From contig DAOTWA010000027.1 in NCBI GenBank assembly GCA_034435955.1, forward strand, positions 16,325 through 80,324: 64,000 nucleotides of DNA, read 5' to 3'. Shown here piece by piece: positions 7,638-40,746 of the stretch. Under the pieces are notes generated by a model. That model saw only the letters and a program-made list of their open reading frames with translations, searched no databases and had not been told where the DNA came from. Origin of the DNA: Anaerolineaceae bacterium. GTDB lineage: Bacteria; Chloroflexota; Anaerolineae; Anaerolineales; Anaerolineaceae. How positions within the stretch are numbered: position 1 is the first letter of the stretch; every line of letters begins with the position of its first letter. The position numbers and the translations under genes were made by a program.

Positions 7638-9188
7638 TCATCCTTTGCGGCGGCGTTGCAACCAGGTGGTAACGCCCGAGACTACCACCAATCCGGGGAG
7701 TACGAAGACAGAAACCAGCAGCACAAGGCCTATACTGGTGCGCGTTGGCGGCAGCATGATACGCTGGGTCGTATTCTTTGGTGTCAGGTTGATCAAATTG
7801 TCCTGTGAAGCCGCCCAGTCGATCGAGTTGATCAGAAAGTCGCCGTTGCCATATTGGTCGAAATAGGTGTCGGTGGCGAAGTCAGAATCGCCGATGACGA
7901 CCAGCCGGGCCTTTGTCTTAGTATCCGTGGCGGATACCGCTACCGTCACCGGGCCCAGCAGGTCCTGCCCCTGATTGGGCGATACCTGGTTGGCGGCCAG
8001 GTCCTGGAAATTCGTCTCTCCCCACGAACGGTTCGAGGTTTTTACCAGATCGGTCGTAGAAATATCTTGGGAAACGGAATGGGTGGTCAAACTGCGAGCC
8101 GTAGGGAATACGGTTACCAGTCCTTGCAGCTTCTGGGTGATGGTTGAGTTACCGTACTGGGCAGCTACCGCCGCAGTCGGAGGCTGGACAGCCAGATCGA
8201 TGATGATGTCTTTGTCCAGGGATATCCCCCAGGTTTTGTCCAGATAATCGGCCAACGGATCTGCTGCATCACCGAAATCGGTAACCGGCAGGGGTTCCTC
8301 CATAACGACCAATGCCCCACCCTTCGATTGGTAATCCTGCAGAATTTGAACTTCCTTTTCCGATAACGGTTTTCTGGGACCGGCGATGATGATGGCCAGA
8401 GCATCTTTCGGTATGGTCGGATCAACCAGCAGATTGAGGCTCTTAACCGTGTAACTCTTCGCTTCGAGCGTGGACTTGACGCGCGAATAGGCTGTGTTCC
8501 CCGACCCACTCGGGTCGTCCTCCCCATGACCTGTGAGGAAGTAGACCACCCGCGTACCCGGGTTGGTCAATCGGATAAGCGCGGTGTCGAGTTCCTGCTC
8601 ATCGGCAAAGGTCACCTGTTCCATGCGCCCGTTCATCTGGAGTACGATGGTTCCATCGGTTGTCACCTTCGCCTGCTGAGCAGCGATCGGATTTGCCTCA
8701 GGATCGATGAACGTATAATCGAATTTACCGTTGGAGTTGTATTTGAAGTTATCCAACAGCGTCTTGGCGCTATCTGGAGAGGTGCGGCTGGTGAAGAATG
8801 CCTGGGCAGTTACTTTATCCGGCAGTTTCTTGAGCAGGCTGATTGTCTCGGGCGCCAGAGTGTGAGATTGGTCCTGAGTTAGATCCCATCGGACCGGATT
8901 CTTATAAGCTACGTAATTAATGACAATCAGGATACCGAGGAAGGCGATCAGCATGACCAACGCGTTGCTGCCATAGCGGGCCTGCCGCCCGGTGATCGCC
9001 TCACGGGTGCGCTGCGGATCGAACAGCACGAACAGGGCCAGGCCAAGGACGATTACCGCCAGACCGATTTGAACATACAGGCTGAATTCATGCTGGACGA
9101 TGTACAGCCCGCCGGTGACCAGAGCGGCTGCCAGTGCCAGGTATAGCCCAATTGGAGCGAACCGTCGCAACGAGGTGTTCATCGCCAC
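7638..9188 (-). CDS. GldG-like auxiliary component of an ABC-2 type transport system
   Basis: 516 aa with N-terminal TM segments, a large extracytoplasmic body and a C-terminal TM followed by RRRKG. Overlaps the upstream ABC-2 permease by 10 nt. Call is from architecture and context. Confidence 0.7.
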   Translation of the reverse strand: MAMNTSLRRFAPIGLYLALAAALVTGGLYIVQHEFSLYVQIGLAVIVLGLALFVLFDPQRTREAITGRQARYGSNALVMLIAFLGILIVINYVAYKNPVRWDLTQDQSHTLAPETISLLKKLPDKVTAQAFFTSRTSPDSAKTLLDNFKYNSNGKFDYTFIDPEANPIAAQQAKVTTDGTIVLQMNGRMEQVTFADEQELDTALIRLTNPGTRVVYFLTGHGEDDPSGSGNTAYSRVKSTLEAKSYTVKSLNLLVDPTIPKDALAIIIAGPRKPLSEKEVQILQDYQSKGGALVVMEEPLPVTDFGDAADPLADYLDKTWGISLDKDIIIDLAVQPPTAAVAAQYGNSTITQKLQGLVTVFPTARSLTTHSVSQDISTTDLVKTSNRSWGETNFQDLAANQVSPNQGQDLLGPVTVAVSATDTKTKARLVVIGDSDFATDTYFDQYGNGDFLINSIDWAASQDNLINLTPKNTTQRIMLPPTRTSIGLVLLVSVFVLPGLVVVSGVTTWLQRRRKG

Positions 9189-9910
9189 CTCCGCATCTCA
9201 ACGGAGAGGCTGCCTATGAAAAGCCCCAATGCAGTGAGACTGAGGTAATAAACAATATCCTGCAACTGGATCAATCCGGTGTAAAAGGAATTGTAAAAAT
9301 GCTGGCTCATATCCAGATAAGTGAGGAGCTGCCCGCCTCCTGCGCCCATCGCCTGGGCGGGAAATCCGATCAGCCAGAAGATGAGCAAGATGCCTAACCC
9401 CATAAAAAACGCCGCTATTTGATTGCTGAAGAACGATGAGACTGCCACACCGATCGCAGTCAAGGCCATCGATAACAGCAGCATGCCGAGATAACCCGCG
9501 ATCAGCATACCCTGGTCTATGCCGGGTTGTATCATACGGTTTAGGATGAGCGGAAACACCAGGGAAACCACCAGGATGGTGAGCAAGAACAAAACGGCCC
9601 CCAGCCATTTACCGACCACCAACTCCCAATCACGAACCGGGGATGTGAGCAACAACTCCAGCGTCCCCGAACGTTGTTCTTCGGCCAGCAAACGCATGGT
9701 GATTGCCGGAGTAGAAAACAGGAACAGAGTCATCAGTGGGCCAATGACGATCTGAACGTTAGGGGCGAATTGTTGTGCTGCGGCGGCAATAACATTGGCG
9801 TAAAAGATGATCCCCAAGATCAACAGGATTATGAAGGCAACGATGTAGGCGATTGGACTGACGAAATAATGGTTGAACTCTCTTCGGGCGATGATCCAGA
9901 TATTGCGCAT
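9179..9910 (-). CDS. ABC-2 family transporter permease (GldF-like)
   Basis: 243 aa with about six hydrophobic helices. Sits between the ABC ATPase and the GldG-like gene on the same strand. Confidence 0.8.
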   Translation of the reverse strand: MRNIWIIARREFNHYFVSPIAYIVAFIILLILGIIFYANVIAAAAQQFAPNVQIVIGPLMTLFLFSTPAITMRLLAEEQRSGTLELLLTSPVRDWELVVGKWLGAVLFLLTILVVSLVFPLILNRMIQPGIDQGMLIAGYLGMLLLSMALTAIGVAVSSFFSNQIAAFFMGLGILLIFWLIGFPAQAMGAGGGQLLTYLDMSQHFYNSFYTGLIQLQDIVYYLSLTALGLFIGSLSVEMRRWR

Positions 9911-26552: not shown

Positions 26553-27722
<1,170 letters not shown>

Positions 27723-30836: not shown

Positions 30837-32015
30837 ATGGACATATTCGATAAATGCTACAACTTCACTGCAGCCAAAGAGGCTATGGCAACAGGCATCT
30901 ATCCCTATTTTATTCCCCTGACAGAGAACGAGGGCACCGAGGTCGTCTTTCACGGCCATCGGCTGATCATGTGCGGGTCGAACAATTACCTGGGGCTGAC
31001 CACACACCCGAAGGTTCGCCAAGCCGCCCTGGAGGCTATCGCCCGATACGGCACGAGCTGCACCGGCTCTCGTTTCCTGAACGGGACCCTCGAGCTCCAT
31101 GAACAGCTCGAACATGAGCTGGCCGAGTGGGTGGGAAAGGAAGCCGCGTTGACATTCTCCACCGGTATGCAGGTCAATCTTGGCACAATCAGCGCCCTGG
31201 TAGGACGGGGTGATGTGATCGTCATGGATAAGGATGATCACGCCAGCATCGTCGATGGAGCTCGCCTGAGCGGAGGGGAGATACAGCGTTTCCGCCACAA
31301 TGACATGGAGCATCTCGAGCGGGTCTTGGCCTCCATACCCGAAGATAAATCCACATTGGTGGTGGTCGATGGATTATTCAGCATGGAGGGTGATATCGCC
31401 CCTCTGCCTGAGCTTACCCGGTTGTGTAAGAAGTACGGCGCGCGCCTGATGGTTGATGACGCCCATGCCATGGGTGTGCTGGGCGGGGGAAAGGGCACCG
31501 CCGCTCATTTCGGTCTGACCGATCAGGTCGACCTGATCATGTCAACTTTCAGCAAGTCCTTCGCCTCGCTGGGGGGCTTTATCGCTGGTGATGAGCCGGT
31601 CATCCATTACATCAAACACCACGCCCGCGCGTTGATCTTCAGCGCCAGCATCACCCCAGCCAGCGCTGCGGCCGCTCTGGCTGCCCTGCATGTGATGCGT
31701 GATGAACCCGAGCTCGTACAGCGCGTGAATCAGAACGCTGAAAAAATGCGTCGGGGTTTTCGCGAGCTGGGTTTCAACACCGGAAACTCGGTCACTCCCG
31801 TCATCCCCATTATCATCGGGGATGATGAGCGCACATTCCTTGCCTGGAAGCTATTGTTTGAAGGCGGCGTCTTTGTGAATCCGGTCATCTCACCGGCCAC
31901 TCCTCCCGGCAGGCAGCTTCTACGCACCAGCTACATGGCCTCACACACTGAAGAGCAGCTCAACCGTGTGTTGGATGTTTTTGCCACGGTTGGCAAACAG
32001 GTTGGGTTGATCTAA
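30837..32015 (+). CDS. PLP-dependent alpha-oxoamine synthase, serine palmitoyltransferase-like
   Basis: GIYPYF...GSNNYLGLTTHP...GSRFLNGTLELHEQLEHELA...DKDDHASIVDG...RFRHNDMEHLE...VDDAHAMG...STFSKSFASLGG (PLP-Lys)...SPATPPGRQLLRTS. The Lys context TFSKS and the overall similarity resemble bacterial SPT more than BioF or Kbl. Confidence 0.8.
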   Translation: MDIFDKCYNFTAAKEAMATGIYPYFIPLTENEGTEVVFHGHRLIMCGSNNYLGLTTHPKVRQAALEAIARYGTSCTGSRFLNGTLELHEQLEHELAEWVGKEAALTFSTGMQVNLGTISALVGRGDVIVMDKDDHASIVDGARLSGGEIQRFRHNDMEHLERVLASIPEDKSTLVVVDGLFSMEGDIAPLPELTRLCKKYGARLMVDDAHAMGVLGGGKGTAAHFGLTDQVDLIMSTFSKSFASLGGFIAGDEPVIHYIKHHARALIFSASITPASAAAALAALHVMRDEPELVQRVNQNAEKMRRGFRELGFNTGNSVTPVIPIIIGDDERTFLAWKLLFEGGVFVNPVISPATPPGRQLLRTSYMASHTEEQLNRVLDVFATVGKQVGLI

Positions 32016-32023
32016 GCTTTTGC

Positions 32024-32857
32024 CTAGCGGGTCATATACAGAATGCCGATGGTGTTTGGCCCACAGTGGCTGGAGATGACGGCTCCGGCAGTGGTGATCA
32101 AAATTTCATCAGGCGCTGCCATTTTTTGAATCTGGTTTGCCAGATATTCTGCATCGCCATCACAGCCCGAGTGGGTGATGAACACCCGACGGCGATCCAG
32201 CTCGTCCAGATGGGCCTGGAAGTCGGCCAGCAGGGTGTCCAAAGCCTTGGCCCGCGAACCCCGCAGTTTGTTCCTCACTCCAAGTGTGCCATCCGGCCGT
32301 ACCTCTATCACCGGACGGATGCTCAACAGGCTGCCGACCAGGTTCTCGACGGCTGAACAGCGTCCGCCCATGTAAAGATACTCGAGAGTATCCACGACGA
32401 AGGCAGTGTGAACCTTGGGCACCATTCCCGCGATCTGGCCAGCGACATCTTCCAGGTCCAATCCTTCGTCGCGCAGTTCGGCGGCGCGCAGCGCCAGCAA
32501 ACCGATGCCGGTTGAGAGGTTGAGCGAATCGACCAACCGCAGCGGGGATTGCGTCCATTCCTGAGAGGCGAGATACACATTCTGGAAGGTGGCCGACAAT
32601 CTCGAGGATAGCCCGATATACAGATTTGGGGATTGTGGATCAAAGGCCTGCAAAATCTCAGGGATGGCTGGAGCTGCCGTTTTGGGCAACTCATGATACT
32701 GCTCTACGAGCTCAAAAAGCTGCTTTGAATGCAGATTGATGCCATCTTTATAGGTTTGACCAGCGATGGTCACCGTCAGCGGGATAACATGGATATTGTA
32801 GCGGGCTATGAGCTCCGGGCTAAGATCGGCGGTGCTATCTGTCAGGATATGGATCAT
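32024..32857 (-). CDS. DegV family fatty-acid-binding protein
   Basis: MIHILTDSTADLSPELIARYNIHVIPLTVTIAGQTYKDG is a typical DegV N-terminus. 277 aa. Confidence 0.85.
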   Translation of the reverse strand: MIHILTDSTADLSPELIARYNIHVIPLTVTIAGQTYKDGINLHSKQLFELVEQYHELPKTAAPAIPEILQAFDPQSPNLYIGLSSRLSATFQNVYLASQEWTQSPLRLVDSLNLSTGIGLLALRAAELRDEGLDLEDVAGQIAGMVPKVHTAFVVDTLEYLYMGGRCSAVENLVGSLLSIRPVIEVRPDGTLGVRNKLRGSRAKALDTLLADFQAHLDELDRRRVFITHSGCDGDAEYLANQIQKMAAPDEILITTAGAVISSHCGPNTIGILYMTR

Positions 32858-32983
32858 CGGTCTAGCCTCAATTTGGGATTGGTTGTTAGCGCCATTTTAG
32901 CAACGAAATCAAAAGGGATGGTGTTATAAAAATGCACACTATTTTAACCAGTTTTAAGAATTGATATCTACTATAATCATCTT

Positions 32984-33937
32984 ATGCCGACAGGTTTGAT
33001 TCTACACAATCCAGCGGCCGGTCGTCTCCCGGCGAAATTCCTCGTAAGCCGGGCGGCGGCTCTCCTGCGCAAATATGGCTGGAAGATCGATATGGTCGAA
33101 AGTCATTCGGGCGAACATCTCGCCGAGCTGGCCCGCCAGGCTGCAGAACAGCGTCTCGACGCTGTTTTTGTCGCTGGCGGCGATGGTTCCATCGGATGGG
33201 CGCTGTCATCTCTGGTAGGCACCGGAACCTCTCTGGGTGTCCTGCCAGTTGGCACGGCCAATGTATGGGCGCGCGAACTGGGCTTACCGGTGCTCTCGGT
33301 CCTTAACCCCTTATCGGTAGATCAATGGGCTAGGACTTTAGCTACGATTCCTCCCAGCAGCGTGGATGTAGGTATGTGCAGCGGGCGCCCATTTCTGATG
33401 TGGGCCGGCATCGGCCTGGACGCCTATCTGATTCACCAACTGGAGCCGCGCGCCCGCTGGGTGAAATATTTTACCTCGCTTCATTATGCGGCCATCGCTT
33501 TTAAAAACGCCAATTATTGGGGTGGAGTCAATTTGCATGTGACCGCCGATGGGCGACATATTGATGGTCACTTTTTGTTGGCGATCGTCAATAACATTCG
33601 TACTTATGTGGGCGGCCTGGCGCGTTTGTCCGAGACGATATATCTGGATGACGGGTTGATGGATTTGTGGCTGTTCTCAGGAGATACGCTGTGGGATGCG
33701 CTGATCCATTTCCGTGATCTGTTACTGGGCCGCCACGTGCACTCGGACCAGGCCATGTGTGTACATTTCCACCAGCTCAGCATTGAATCTGAGACGCCCG
33801 TATATCTTGAGATGGATGGGGAGCCCGTACCGCTGGAGAAATCGCGGGTTGAAATCCGCGTTCAACCGGCGGGATTGAAAGTGTTGGTGCCACTGAAGAC
33901 GCCGGCGCGCCTGTTTCTATATCAGCGCGTTTTGTGA
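32984..33937 (+). CDS. lipid kinase of the diacylglycerol/sphingosine kinase catalytic-domain family (YegS/LCB5-like)
   Basis: DAVFVAGGDGSIGWAL...LGVLPVGTANVWAREL matches the DAGK_cat nucleotide-binding motifs. 317 aa. Confidence 0.8.
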   Translation: MPTGLILHNPAAGRLPAKFLVSRAAALLRKYGWKIDMVESHSGEHLAELARQAAEQRLDAVFVAGGDGSIGWALSSLVGTGTSLGVLPVGTANVWARELGLPVLSVLNPLSVDQWARTLATIPPSSVDVGMCSGRPFLMWAGIGLDAYLIHQLEPRARWVKYFTSLHYAAIAFKNANYWGGVNLHVTADGRHIDGHFLLAIVNNIRTYVGGLARLSETIYLDDGLMDLWLFSGDTLWDALIHFRDLLLGRHVHSDQAMCVHFHQLSIESETPVYLEMDGEPVPLEKSRVEIRVQPAGLKVLVPLKTPARLFLYQRVL

Positions 33938-34001
33938 GTTGGAAAAACCCATAACCGATCCGGGCTATTGCGCATAGAAAATAATATTACACGCGAAGAT
34001 A

Positions 34002-38516: not shown

Positions 38517-40746
38517 GGATGGATTTCTCCCAAAATGTCTGCAACGCAATGAAAGGCGCCGCCGGCTGCTGATCGCCACGCTGGCCGCTGTTCCAGGTGA
38601 CAATCAGCTCTTTTTTGGCGCGGGTGATGCCGACATACAGCAGGCGCAGCCGCTCGGCGGCGTATGCCAGGCGCGCCTGGCGAGTGGCGACACCTTCCTC
38701 CAGATTCCAACCAGCCGGATCGCCGGCGATCAGGGCTTGAAGCTGGCTGAGGGTCTCGGCTGTTAGGTTGAGATGACCTCGCACGAAGTATTTCTCGGCA
38801 ATGTAGCTGTCGCCGGGCTGGCCTGAGGGGAAATCGTAGCTGTTCACTGAGAGCAGGTACACGCGATCCCATTCGAGGCCTTTGGCTTTATGCATGGTCG
38901 CTACCACTACTTTGCCTTTATGCCTTTCGGGATCAAAGCCGGTGTCTTCGTCGCTTAAGCCGAGCATTTTGCGCTCATTGCGGGCGATCACCAGCAGCTC
39001 CTCGCTCAGGCGGGTCAAATCCCATTCCGGGTGCTCGTTTGAGGTCTGGCGTAAGATGCCAGCCAGTTTGTGCGCGACCGCCAGGTCGGCTGGACGATCG
39101 AACAAATCCTGGGCCAGCGTCAGGATGAGCTGCTCGATGGGCAGCAAGCTGGCGCTCTGCCAGCGCTGGACAAGCTCGCGAAATCCAACCAGCAGCTCAT
39201 ATACATCGCTGTCGTTCTCGGCAAGGCCGCTTTCCTCCAGCCAATCGCGTTGGGGGCGCGGCCACAGGTAATCCTCTACCCGCGGCAGTTTACGTATCAG
39301 CCGGAATCCGCGCTCGATGGCCGCGGTAGCAACCTCGTCCTCCTGCTCTGGACGCTGCCAGGCGCGCAATGCATTCGCCAGTTTGGCAGCGGCGCCAGGT
39401 TCACCCAGGTATTCGACCATCTTACCCAAGCGGTCGGCTGCCTCGCGCGTGGAATGGGTGCTCTTGAGGATCTCGATATAAGGGATGCGACGGGCCTTGA
39501 GCGCTTCGACCAGCTCTGCGCCGCGGTCATTGCGCGGAACCAGCGCCGCGACGGTCCCATCCGGGTGAGCGGCTATCCAGCTTGCCAGTGAATCGGCCAC
39601 CAGGTTCAGCTCCTCTGCCGGGGTTAGCTTCCGGGCGAACAGGTGAATGGCTCCCGGGTCGTCGGGTGGGTTAGGCTGTGGATCCCCGGGCGGTGTGGGC
39701 AGGATGTAAGGCAGCGTCAGTGTTCCACGGAGCTCCTCCACCGGATGTTCATCACGCGACCAATCGATCAGGAAATTTGCCAGGCGCAGGATGCTGGCAG
39801 TCGAACGGCCTGAGTTGGGCAGCTCGCGGGACTCGACGTCCTCGCGCTTTAGAAAATCAATGAGGAATTTTGGGCTGGCAGTGGTGAAGGTCTCATATAT
39901 AGATTGGTTAGGGTCCCCGACGCGCACCCAGTTACCGCCCTCGCCGGCCAGCAGGCGCAGGATTTCCTCCTGCAGCCGGCTGCTGTCCTGGGCTTCGTCC
40001 TCGAGGATGTATGGCCAGCGGCGGCGCAGCCTGGAGAGGTAGTCCGGATCATTGAGCAGCACCTGCAAAGCCAGTCGGATCAGATCGTCGAAGTCGACCG
40101 CACCGCGGTAAGCCAGCGCACGCTGGTAATCGGCGTAGACCTCGGCGCCCATCTCTACCAGCGGCAGGCTGGCGCCGCTCTCCTCCAGCCGCTGGCGCAA
40201 CTCGGCGGGGGTTAACTGCATGTCCTTGGCTGTCTTAATGAACGCGCCGGCAATTTCCATTACCAGCTCAGGCCAGCGTTCTCGACGGTCGCGGCGCTGG
40301 TTGAAGTCGTCTCGATCTGGATCCAGAAATAAGTCGGCTGCCTCCTGGTTGGAGTGGATCCACGCATCCACCGATGCCCGTAAAATGCCTTCGGCAGCCC
40401 GCTCGTCAATGATGGCGAAATCGCCAGACAAATTGGCCAGCTCGGGACGTTCGCGCACGATGTCATGCGCCAGACCGTGCAGGGTGCGCACCCGATAGCC
40501 CACATGCGGCAATAAACCGCGCTCGGCTATAAAAGCGGCCACCCTACGAGCGAAATTGTCCACCGCTGAGTTGACCAGAGTCACGATCAGCACTTCCTGG
40601 TCCTCTGCTACGCGCCCTTCTGCTATCAACCGGGCAGCCAGATAGGAAAGCGTTTGCGTCTTTCCACTCCCTGGTACTGCCGAGACTCCCATCCAGCCGC
40701 CGGAGTAATTGAGCACCTCTTCCTGCAAAGGGCGGGGTTTAAACAT
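38494..40746 (-). CDS. UvrD/Rep/AddA-type superfamily 1 DNA helicase (all motifs intact, no nuclease domain)
   Basis: Motif I AVPGSGKTQT, Ia IVTLVNSAVDNF, II YILEDEAQDSS, III VRVGDPNQSIYETF, V ATMHKAKGLEWDRV, VI LLYVGITRAKKELIV. ATG 40746 overlaps the upstream stop in ATGTTTAA. Confidence 0.88.
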   Translation of the reverse strand: MFKPRPLQEEVLNYSGGWMGVSAVPGSGKTQTLSYLAARLIAEGRVAEDQEVLIVTLVNSAVDNFARRVAAFIAERGLLPHVGYRVRTLHGLAHDIVRERPELANLSGDFAIIDERAAEGILRASVDAWIHSNQEAADLFLDPDRDDFNQRRDRRERWPELVMEIAGAFIKTAKDMQLTPAELRQRLEESGASLPLVEMGAEVYADYQRALAYRGAVDFDDLIRLALQVLLNDPDYLSRLRRRWPYILEDEAQDSSRLQEEILRLLAGEGGNWVRVGDPNQSIYETFTTASPKFLIDFLKREDVESRELPNSGRSTASILRLANFLIDWSRDEHPVEELRGTLTLPYILPTPPGDPQPNPPDDPGAIHLFARKLTPAEELNLVADSLASWIAAHPDGTVAALVPRNDRGAELVEALKARRIPYIEILKSTHSTREAADRLGKMVEYLGEPGAAAKLANALRAWQRPEQEDEVATAAIERGFRLIRKLPRVEDYLWPRPQRDWLEESGLAENDSDVYELLVGFRELVQRWQSASLLPIEQLILTLAQDLFDRPADLAVAHKLAGILRQTSNEHPEWDLTRLSEELLVIARNERKMLGLSDEDTGFDPERHKGKVVVATMHKAKGLEWDRVYLLSVNSYDFPSGQPGDSYIAEKYFVRGHLNLTAETLSQLQALIAGDPAGWNLEEGVATRQARLAYAAERLRLLYVGITRAKKELIVTWNSGQRGDQQPAAPFIALQTFWEKSIHAAAETG

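Follow-up and report, generated by a model that had tools for sequence, protein, structure and literature searches.

A predicted serine palmitoyltransferase of an Anaerolineaceae bacterium and a candidate reductase partner encoded away from it

We analyzed a locus within a 64,000-nucleotide stretch of an Anaerolineaceae bacterium genome (assembly GCA_034435955.1, contig DAOTWA010000027.1, positions 16,325 to 80,324; the window), where a gene for a serine palmitoyltransferase (SPT)-type alpha-oxoamine synthase (AOS) adjoins genes for a DegV protein and a lipid kinase. The genome (G000) amounts to 3.15 Mb in 88 contigs and is 96.8% complete. The synthase gene (positions 30837 to 32015 of the window, plus strand) encodes 392 amino acids with a match to Pfam Aminotran_1_2 (E value, 3e-60) and was assigned by model NF047600, PDB ranking, active-site residues, and a tree. 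As read from the sequence, its stop codon lies 8 nt (32016 to 32023) from that of a convergent gene on the minus strand (32024 to 32857), which encodes a DegV/FakB-type fatty-acid-binding protein of 277 amino acids, one of seven paralogues, that matches PF02645 with 231 bits and passes TIGR00762 (246.9 bits; cutoff, 99.7). An AT-rich spacer of 126 nt (32858 to 32983; 34% GC) separates this gene from a divergent kinase gene on the plus strand (32984 to 33937), whose 317-residue product is a soluble lipid kinase with Pfam DAGK_cat (81 bits) and YegS_C (51 bits) domains and a GGDG motif. A further AT-rich spacer (33938 to 34001; 41% GC) lies between the kinase gene and a GTPase gene. A preliminary description of this DNA had placed the three open reading frames (ORFs) at exactly these positions, in these families, and with the synthase and DegV genes convergent and the DegV and kinase genes divergent, all of which we confirmed.

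Eight ORFs between positions 26553 and 35279 of the window were scanned by family. Upstream of the synthase gene, they include a lipoprotein-like ORF without an assigned family, a Nudix hydrolase, an aldolase, and a phosphofructokinase, and downstream of the kinase gene, they include the membrane GTPase. None of the eight encodes a reductase, an acyltransferase, or an acyl carrier protein (ACP), in agreement with the preliminary description, which had listed ceramide synthase, ketosphinganine reductase, and ACP genes as missing. A TATAAT hexamer is present at positions 32972 to 32977, 6 nt ahead of the kinase ATG. The promoter scan was at chance level (2 sites versus 2.6 expected), and the terminator scan, likewise at chance level, returned no terminator-like site in the 8-nt gap between the synthase and DegV genes.

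The synthase was compared with curated NCBIfam models, and the highest score was obtained with the Bacteroidota SPT model NF047600 (538.4 bits), followed by betaproteobacterial SPT (408), the BioF/Kbl subfamily (378), ALAS (251), and CqsA (218). SPT models thus lead the ranking, by approximately 150 bits over BioF/Kbl, and the protein remains under the cutoffs of both the BioF model TIGR00858 (385.8 bits; cutoff, 426.45) and the Kbl model NF005394 (353.3 bits; cutoff, 460). Among solved structures, the closest was SPT of Sphingobacterium multivorum (432 bits to PDB entry 3A2B), ahead of Sphingomonas SPT (approximately 297 bits), Thermus BioF/Kbl (274), Kbl (up to 234), and Escherichia coli BioF (217). 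The window protein has the same length as the Bacteroidota-type SPTs (PDB entries 3A2B and 8GUH; NF047600), is likewise a soluble AOS of the homodimer type, and is 54% and 49% identical to the SPTs of Parabacteroides distasonis and Bacteroides finegoldii, respectively; it differs from them in coming from a Chloroflexota lineage. Its close homologues (78 to 81% identical) carry source names that include Anaerolineae bacterium, Anaerolineaceae, and Longilinea.

We then mapped the residues that bind pyridoxal phosphate and L-serine in S. multivorum SPT structures, as named in the text seen of PMC10196870, onto the synthase through the alignment of the PDB match. Of the 15 residues compared (Asn52, Gly80, Ser81, Phe83, Leu84, His138, Ser185, Asp210, Ala212, His213, Thr241, Ser243, Lys244, Met271, and Phe272), 14 are identical, with the Schiff-base Lys244 corresponding to K240, and the sole change, a further difference from the Bacteroidota enzymes, replaces Met271, a main-chain contact, with Ile. 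All of the motif blocks that the preliminary description had cited (LNGTLELH, DHASIVDG, RFRHNDMEHLE, VDDAHAMG, TFSKS, and PATPPGRQLLR) occur in the translation. In a labeled alignment, all four labeled SPTs carry the lysine motif TFSKS, as do the window protein and 28 of the 29 Anaerolineae orthologues, whereas none of the five Kbl/BioF-type proteins has it. The motif does separate SPT from Kbl/BioF, as had been proposed, but the pattern GT[FL]GKA given for the latter is only roughly right, as these proteins read TLGKA, TLSKA, or TFGKG.

To place the synthase phylogenetically, an 81-row AOS tree was computed with IQ-TREE as a quick search, with SH-aLRT as the only measure of support and no bootstrap. 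The rows included 29 orthologues from relatives, six members of an AOS class of about 47% identity, the paralogue from the same genome, three named SPT-like proteins, and 33 library representatives of 380 to 450 amino acids, with no ALAS, CqsA, or cysteate acyltransferase rows. None of the ten nearest library representatives passes the SPT cutoff, and the labeled references were drawn from annotated plasmid and E. coli records. The labeled SPTs were those of P. distasonis and B. finegoldii, which pass the SPT cutoff at 684 and 700 bits, and those of Sphingomonas and Rahnella, each of which lies within a canonical ACP/reductase cluster; Kbl was represented by the E. coli and Bacillus thuringiensis proteins (the latter gene adjoining tdh) and BioF by those of E. 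coli and Alicyclobacillus, both encoded in bio operons. The 30 Anaerolineae orthologues formed one clade (SH-aLRT, 95), which grouped with the Bacteroidales SPTs (SH-aLRT, 90) and was nested in a 70-row clade (SH-aLRT, 98) containing all four labeled SPTs, whereas Kbl, BioF, and the 47%-identity class fell outside that clade. The phylogeny thus sets the synthase inside a clade bounded by labeled SPTs and apart from BioF and Kbl, and together with the NCBIfam scores, the PDB ranking, and the active-site residues it bears out the earlier claim of an SPT-like enzyme.

Sphingolipids were long thought to be rare in bacteria, and Chloroflexota are abundant in anoxic sediments. SPT-like genes in Anaerolineae have already been published (PMC11334938), and the window synthase is a further, well-supported member of this group. 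According to the text seen of that study (Ding, von Meijenfeldt et al. 2024, PMC11334938), 218 Chloroflexota metagenome-assembled genomes of the class Anaerolineae encode Spt-like proteins, and the abundance of Anaerolineae was linked to ceramides, glycine-ceramides, and lysine-ceramides; the link between Chloroflexota Spt-like proteins and ceramides is repeated in PMC12619533. In the portions seen, this work from 2024 and 2025 (PMC11334938, PMC12619533) proposes Chloroflexota as overlooked producers of sphingolipids. Our case resembles that of the "Spt-like" clade B of the Black Sea genomes in PMC11334938 in the bacterial class, in the kind of phylogenetic argument, and in the conclusion that Anaerolineae are potential sphingolipid producers. 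The portions seen of PMC11334938 describe a search for bCerS and CerR, and not for a short-chain dehydrogenase (SDR) of the KDSR type.

To identify genes that accompany the synthase, we searched 60 relatives, 36 from the same family and 24 spread over 17 further families within the order. The E-value and identity thresholds for orthologues were set after the score gaps had been seen, and two of the genomes (G018 and G009) are less than 90% complete, which makes "not found" weak in both. A synthase orthologue (65 to 83% identical, two of them partial) was detected in 40 relatives, comprising 32 of the 36 family members and 8 of the 24 others. Clustering of the neighboring genes revealed a classical SDR of 282 amino acids encoded directly upstream of the synthase and on the same strand in seven loci, and an eighth such adjacency was recognized from coordinates in G036, giving a total of eight genomes in four families. 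The analyzed genome encodes an orthologue of this SDR outside the window and unlinked to the synthase (contig C36, positions 39483 to 40427, minus strand; L086, positions 8483 to 9427), which is 42 to 54% identical to the SPT-linked SDRs, compared with at most 37% for the next SDR. Orthologues were present in 37 of the 40 synthase-bearing relatives and in 2 of the 20 without a synthase. Three genomes of the family (G009, G025, and G035) lack both genes, and outside the family, the SDR was found in six of eight genomes with the synthase and in 1 of 16 without it. Kin are not independent, but it is difficult to account in another way for the loss of both genes together and for their scattered presence together.

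Because of this co-occurrence and the adjacency in relatives, we propose that the C36 SDR is probably a 3-ketosphinganine reductase, an assignment that comes mainly from genomic association. Like the classical-SDR 3-ketosphinganine reductases of yeast (Tsc10; PDB entry 8JAT) and Bacteroides thetaiotaomicron (BT_0972; PMC9278070), the candidate is an adh_short protein of approximately 280 amino acids. In searches of solved structures, which were not diagnostic, the TSC10 ketosphinganine reductase ranked third among PDB matches when the single sequence was used and fourth when a seven-sequence profile was used, and it had the longest coverage. A HAD-like protein of 407 amino acids was rejected as a partner because orthologues occur in 21 of the 40 SPT-bearing relatives and in 14 of the 20 without SPT. 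Proteins of this kind (approximately 400 amino acids, with an N-terminal DxDGVL motif and no Pfam or NCBIfam family) are encoded downstream of the AOS and in its orientation at nine loci (L047-L068), and the copy in the analyzed genome is at C29:800-2020. Other co-oriented genes near the SDR-SPT pair (PP2C, GDPD, peptidase, aldolase, PfkB, transposase, and cupredoxin) were likewise set aside, since none recurs.

The acylation step was approached through two other bacteria. In Rubrobacter and Aureispira, an SPT-like gene is clustered with genes for a GNAT-domain protein of approximately 380 amino acids and an epimerase-family reductase, and these neighbors may be bCerS-like and CerR-like, respectively; in the portions seen of PMC11087976 and PMC11324152, bCerS is an acyltransferase and CerR a reductase homologous to NDUFA9. 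The analyzed genome encodes four homologues of the GNAT protein (28 to 34% identical), and the best candidate, on contig C7, has one clear orthologue (64%) among the 60 relatives, the remaining matches being at paralogue level. Two NCBIfam entries considered as models for bCerS and CerR, NF047601 and NF047602, were discarded, as both describe MscS channels. As a separate observation, the cluster on Rubrobacter radiotolerans plasmid 1 (L100, 6908-12500) is followed by a gene of the LTA synthase family and looks like a ceramide-type cassette in an actinobacterium; the Aureispira anguillae counterpart is carried on pAUEa (L102).

Taken together, we consider it likely that the window encodes an SPT-type synthase whose partner SDR is encoded elsewhere in the genome, and that the DegV protein and the kinase are unrelated neighbors. 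Judged by homology and active-site identity, the synthase, as a soluble and Bacteroidota-like SPT, would most likely convert L-serine and a long-chain acyl-CoA or acyl-ACP to 3-ketosphinganine, which the C36 SDR would probably reduce to sphinganine, a step suggested by co-occurrence and by adjacency in relatives. DegV would be one of seven FakB-type paralogues serving FakA and would sit beside the synthase by inherited synteny, and the kinase gene would have entered the site between the genes for the GTPase and DegV in this lineage alone, with no tie to the synthase. If so, gene neighbors can mislead, as DegV and the kinase would be accidents of local genome history while the reductase that tracks the synthase is unlinked to it. 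In practical terms, the synthase and the C36-type reductase, not the neighbors, would be the first proteins of interest in Anaerolineae.

Several observations weigh against this interpretation. The synthase misses the equivalog cutoff of NF047600 (538.4 versus 640 bits), the ten nearest representatives from outside the Anaerolineae are also all under the SPT cutoff (406 to 585 bits), which marks an uncharacterized zone, and the literature searched contains no assayed enzyme from this clade. In the AOS tree, E. coli BioF sits on a long branch, the two BioF references fail to form a monophyletic group, and support is by SH-aLRT only. The SDR cannot be diagnosed by its sequence: the NCBIfam model that it matches best is a generic SDR (190 bits; cutoff, 215), and on the Bacteroides KdsR model it reaches 124 bits (cutoff, 400). 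None of the four GNAT homologues is encoded near the synthase or the SDR, nor does any of them show a clean co-distribution across the 60 relatives, and no ceramide synthase was identified. The relatives searched are kin, so that co-occurrence counts overstate independence. As regards the kinase, the genome encodes three kinases of the DAGK type, and by a rough estimate, the chance that one of three would lie no more than two genes from the synthase is well below 1%; moreover, P. distasonis and B. finegoldii each have a bona fide SPT gene that is divergent from a gene whose product is annotated as "diacylglycerol kinase family protein" and contains DAGK_cat and YegS_C domains.

The preliminary description had proposed that DegV is a partner of the synthase, and a version of this idea without the kinase is unlikely but survives best among the alternatives: the adjacent DegV would bind a particular fatty acid that reaches the synthase by way of FakA and PlsX, and the kinase would be irrelevant. 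In its favor, the window DegV and its counterparts in relatives form an orthologous group of their own (48 to 60% identical among relatives versus at most 30% to the other six paralogues), and its gene adjoins the synthase gene in 10 of the 40 SPT-bearing relatives (9 of 29 loci, plus G019). The lack of synteny in relatives, which the preliminary description had named as speaking against a module, thus applies to DegV in part: the adjacent genes are always convergent, and 24 of the 40 SPT-bearing relatives yielded no DegV orthologue. Orthologues were detected in 18 of the 36 family genomes (one at only 36% identity) and in none of the 24 others; in six SPT-bearing genomes, both genes are present but lie on different contigs, and two genomes, both less than 90% complete, have the DegV orthologue and no detected synthase. 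The adjacency is therefore local synteny inherited within part of one family. In the literature searched, no paper linked DegV to SPT, and the sole paper containing both terms treats DegV only as a fatty-acid uptake protein.

Because the genome contains seven DegV genes as well as FakA (Dak2 with a FakA-like C-terminal domain), encoded on contig C84 next to another DegV, the simplest reading is that the window DegV is probably a FakB-type subunit serving this FakA. Like the FakB/DegV subunits of FakA fatty acid kinase, it has a full-length DegV domain and a FakA in its genome; it differs from FakB1 in falling below the equivalog cutoff (126.8 bits versus 350) and in being one of seven paralogues.

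It is rather unlikely that the synthase has the SPT-like fold and accepts another amino acid, that is, glycine or alanine, to give 1-deoxy bases, or cysteate, to give a sulfonolipid. The protein falls short of the curated SPT cutoff and its clade is uncharacterized; in the text seen of the respective sources, the branches of the SPT-related superfamily include cysteate acyltransferases (PMC13692747) and 1-deoxyceramides are reported from bacteria (PMC11334938). All of the residues that contact the carboxylate and hydroxyl groups of serine (Asn52, Gly80, Ser81, His138, and Ser243) are, however, conserved in the synthase. At the position of Ala82 in the cysteate acyltransferase CFAT, a residue identified by its description in the portion seen of PMC13692747, the synthase has Ser, as does SPT, the equivalent of SPT Ser81 being Ser78. 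Moreover, the solved cysteate acyltransferases (CFAT/SulA) score 263 and 251 bits, compared with 432 bits for SPT, all of which fits the SPT assignment better.

Next, we consider the module put forward in the preliminary description, with DegV as the source of the acyl chain, the synthase as the producer of the long-chain base, and the kinase as the enzyme that phosphorylates this base or its ceramide. We regard it as quite improbable. It has the physical adjacency of the three genes in its favor, together with the low odds of a chance placement and the divergent SPT-kinase arrangement of P. distasonis and B. finegoldii described above. Bacterial kinases of the DAGK type that act on sphinganine or ceramide do exist, and the precedent invoked in the preliminary description is real: in the portions seen of the sources, PG1348 of Porphyromonas gingivalis phosphorylates dihydrosphingosine (PMC9045371) and CpgB of Caulobacter phosphorylates ceramide (PMC10331486). 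The distribution of the kinase among the relatives, however, speaks against such a module. A kinase orthologue (E value of at most 1e-30) was found in none of the 36 family genomes, including one of the same genus, even though 32 of these have the synthase; it was present in 14 of the 24 genomes outside the family (35 to 51% identity). Only three of these 14 also encode the synthase orthologue, and in all 14 the kinase lies away from any AOS match, which is not the co-distribution expected of a sphingoid-base or ceramide kinase. When the 40 related loci were inspected with up to 8 kb of flanking sequence, the kinase was next to the AOS in none of them, its clustering with the synthase being confined to the window, and the synthase, DegV, and kinase occurred together in none of the 40. 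Neither the kinase partnership, which has no synteny in any relative, nor the three-gene module is supported. In addition, the convergent DegV would not be cotranscribed with the synthase, and the literature searched yielded no connection of SPT with either DegV or a DAGK kinase in Chloroflexota.

The site itself suggests a lineage-specific arrival of the kinase gene. In the same-genus relative G001, the DegV gene follows the GTPase gene on the same strand after 79 bp with no kinase gene between them, whereas in the window, the kinase gene and the two AT-rich spacers separate the two. In G044, G047, and G053, which belong to three other families, the kinase orthologue is encoded elsewhere, beside a Ser/Thr protein kinase gene; the counterpart of that Ser/Thr kinase gene in the analyzed genome is at the rpe-asp23-fakA-degV cluster on C84, which has no lipid kinase. 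Because the kinase was not found in the 36 family genomes, including G001, occupies a different locus in G044, G047, and G053, and is flanked here by two AT-rich spacers, we propose a lineage-specific insertion: the gene was probably lost from the ancestral site and then inserted secondarily between the GTPase and DegV genes. Its GC3 of 0.607 is approximately 1.3 standard deviations below the genome mean (0.701; standard deviation, 0.073), a difference that is not decisive for transfer. The DegV-FakA-Asp23-Rpe-Ser/Thr kinase cluster is itself conserved and lies at C84:13254-18274 (L108:2254-7274) in the analyzed genome.

On sequence grounds, the kinase appears to be a generic soluble lipid kinase of the YegS/DgkB type that is not tied to the synthase. 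It shares the DAGK_cat plus YegS_C architecture and the GGDG motif with YegS/BmrU/DgkB kinases, with dhSphK1 of P. gingivalis (PG1348), and with CpgB of Caulobacter, and the solved structures that it matches best are those of DgkB-type and YegS proteins (E values of 3e-17 or weaker). All NCBIfam lipid kinase models are under their cutoffs, including TIGR00147 (YegS/Rv2252/BmrU; 94.3 versus 118.65 bits). The SPT-linked kinase of P. distasonis, by comparison, passes TIGR00147 (156 versus 119 bits). This Parabacteroides kinase is 23% identical to the window kinase and, because it is 23 to 26% identical to each of the three kinases of the analyzed genome with no preferred match, it offers no orthology to draw on; in contrast to Bacteroidales SPT, the window synthase thus has no orthologue of the flanking DAGK-family kinase at its side.

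A related scenario, which we consider doubtful to the same degree as the module, is that this lineage recruited a DAGK-type kinase beside SPT and so independently recreated the Bacteroidales pairing, forming a young unit in which the kinase would act on sphinganine or ceramide and DegV would handle the fatty acid.

The Bacteroidales pairing of SPT with a kinase is a separate small lead. The records concerned are NZ_OY725812.1 (P. distasonis, L098) and NZ_OY725929.1 (B. finegoldii, L101), which are labeled as plasmids but carry lon, aspS, rodA, mrdA, and mreCD and look like chromosome fragments. A literature search with the B. thetaiotaomicron tags BT_0871 and BT_0870, beside its SPT, returned no discussion of the pairing, with one preprint containing BT_0871 left aside.

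That the synthase is the BioF or Kbl of this organism, as the label "8-amino-7-oxononanoate synthase" given to close homologues by public pipelines might suggest, is hardly credible, since the protein is under both cutoffs, the tree places it away from both enzymes, a paralogue on contig C49 passes these cutoffs and groups with Kbl, and E. coli queries found no BioB or BioD. This paralogue is the only other AOS in the genome. It passes the BioF/Kbl subfamily model gly_Cac_T_rel (576 bits; cutoff, 535), the Kbl model (527.7; cutoff, 460), and the BioF model (441; cutoff, 426), is 48% identical to E. coli Kbl versus 38% to BioF, groups with Kbl (SH-aLRT, 91), and is encoded outside any bio operon. 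BioB and BioD had no match in the 96.8%-complete genome with the E. coli queries at an E value of at most 1e-5, and the organism may be a biotin auxotroph. With the C49 gene, an independent Kbl/BioF-type gene is present, and the window synthase is therefore not the sole BioF/Kbl-like AOS of a biotin prototroph, the case that the preliminary description had named as speaking against SPT.

The C49 region also contains a second DAGK_cat/YegS_C kinase gene, two genes from the Kbl-like AOS gene, with a Helicase_C_3 protein encoded between them (C49:26077-29908; L044:8077-11905), and two of the three DAGK kinases of the genome are thus encoded near its two AOS genes. This proximity was rejected as a rule, given that the Kbl-like AOS and the second kinase share a contig, 1.8 to 4.7 kb apart, in only four relatives (G011, G020, G029, and G050).

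Further AOS types were encountered during the searches. A separate class, 41 to 49% identical to the window protein, is encoded in six loci from other families of the order (L077, L079, L081, L083, L084, and L085), mostly flanked by genes for an NAD-dependent DNA ligase and a PUA-domain methyltransferase. Its members score about equally on the SPT, BioF/Kbl, and BioF models (397 to 427 bits) and have Tyr in place of Asn52 and Val in place of Ser81, two substrate-contacting positions. Many of the 150 nearest library representatives are long proteins (650 to 2,555 amino acids) with a C-terminal or central AOS domain, presumably acyl-activating or polyketide synthase-type fusions. Finally, a mobilizable plasmid of Priestia megaterium (NZ_CP137804.1; L099, 7001-8215) carries an SPT-like gene whose product is 53% identical to the window synthase and which is divergent from genes for a methyltransferase and an Acyl_transf_3 membrane acyltransferase; the same SPT-like gene is present on a second P. 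megaterium plasmid.

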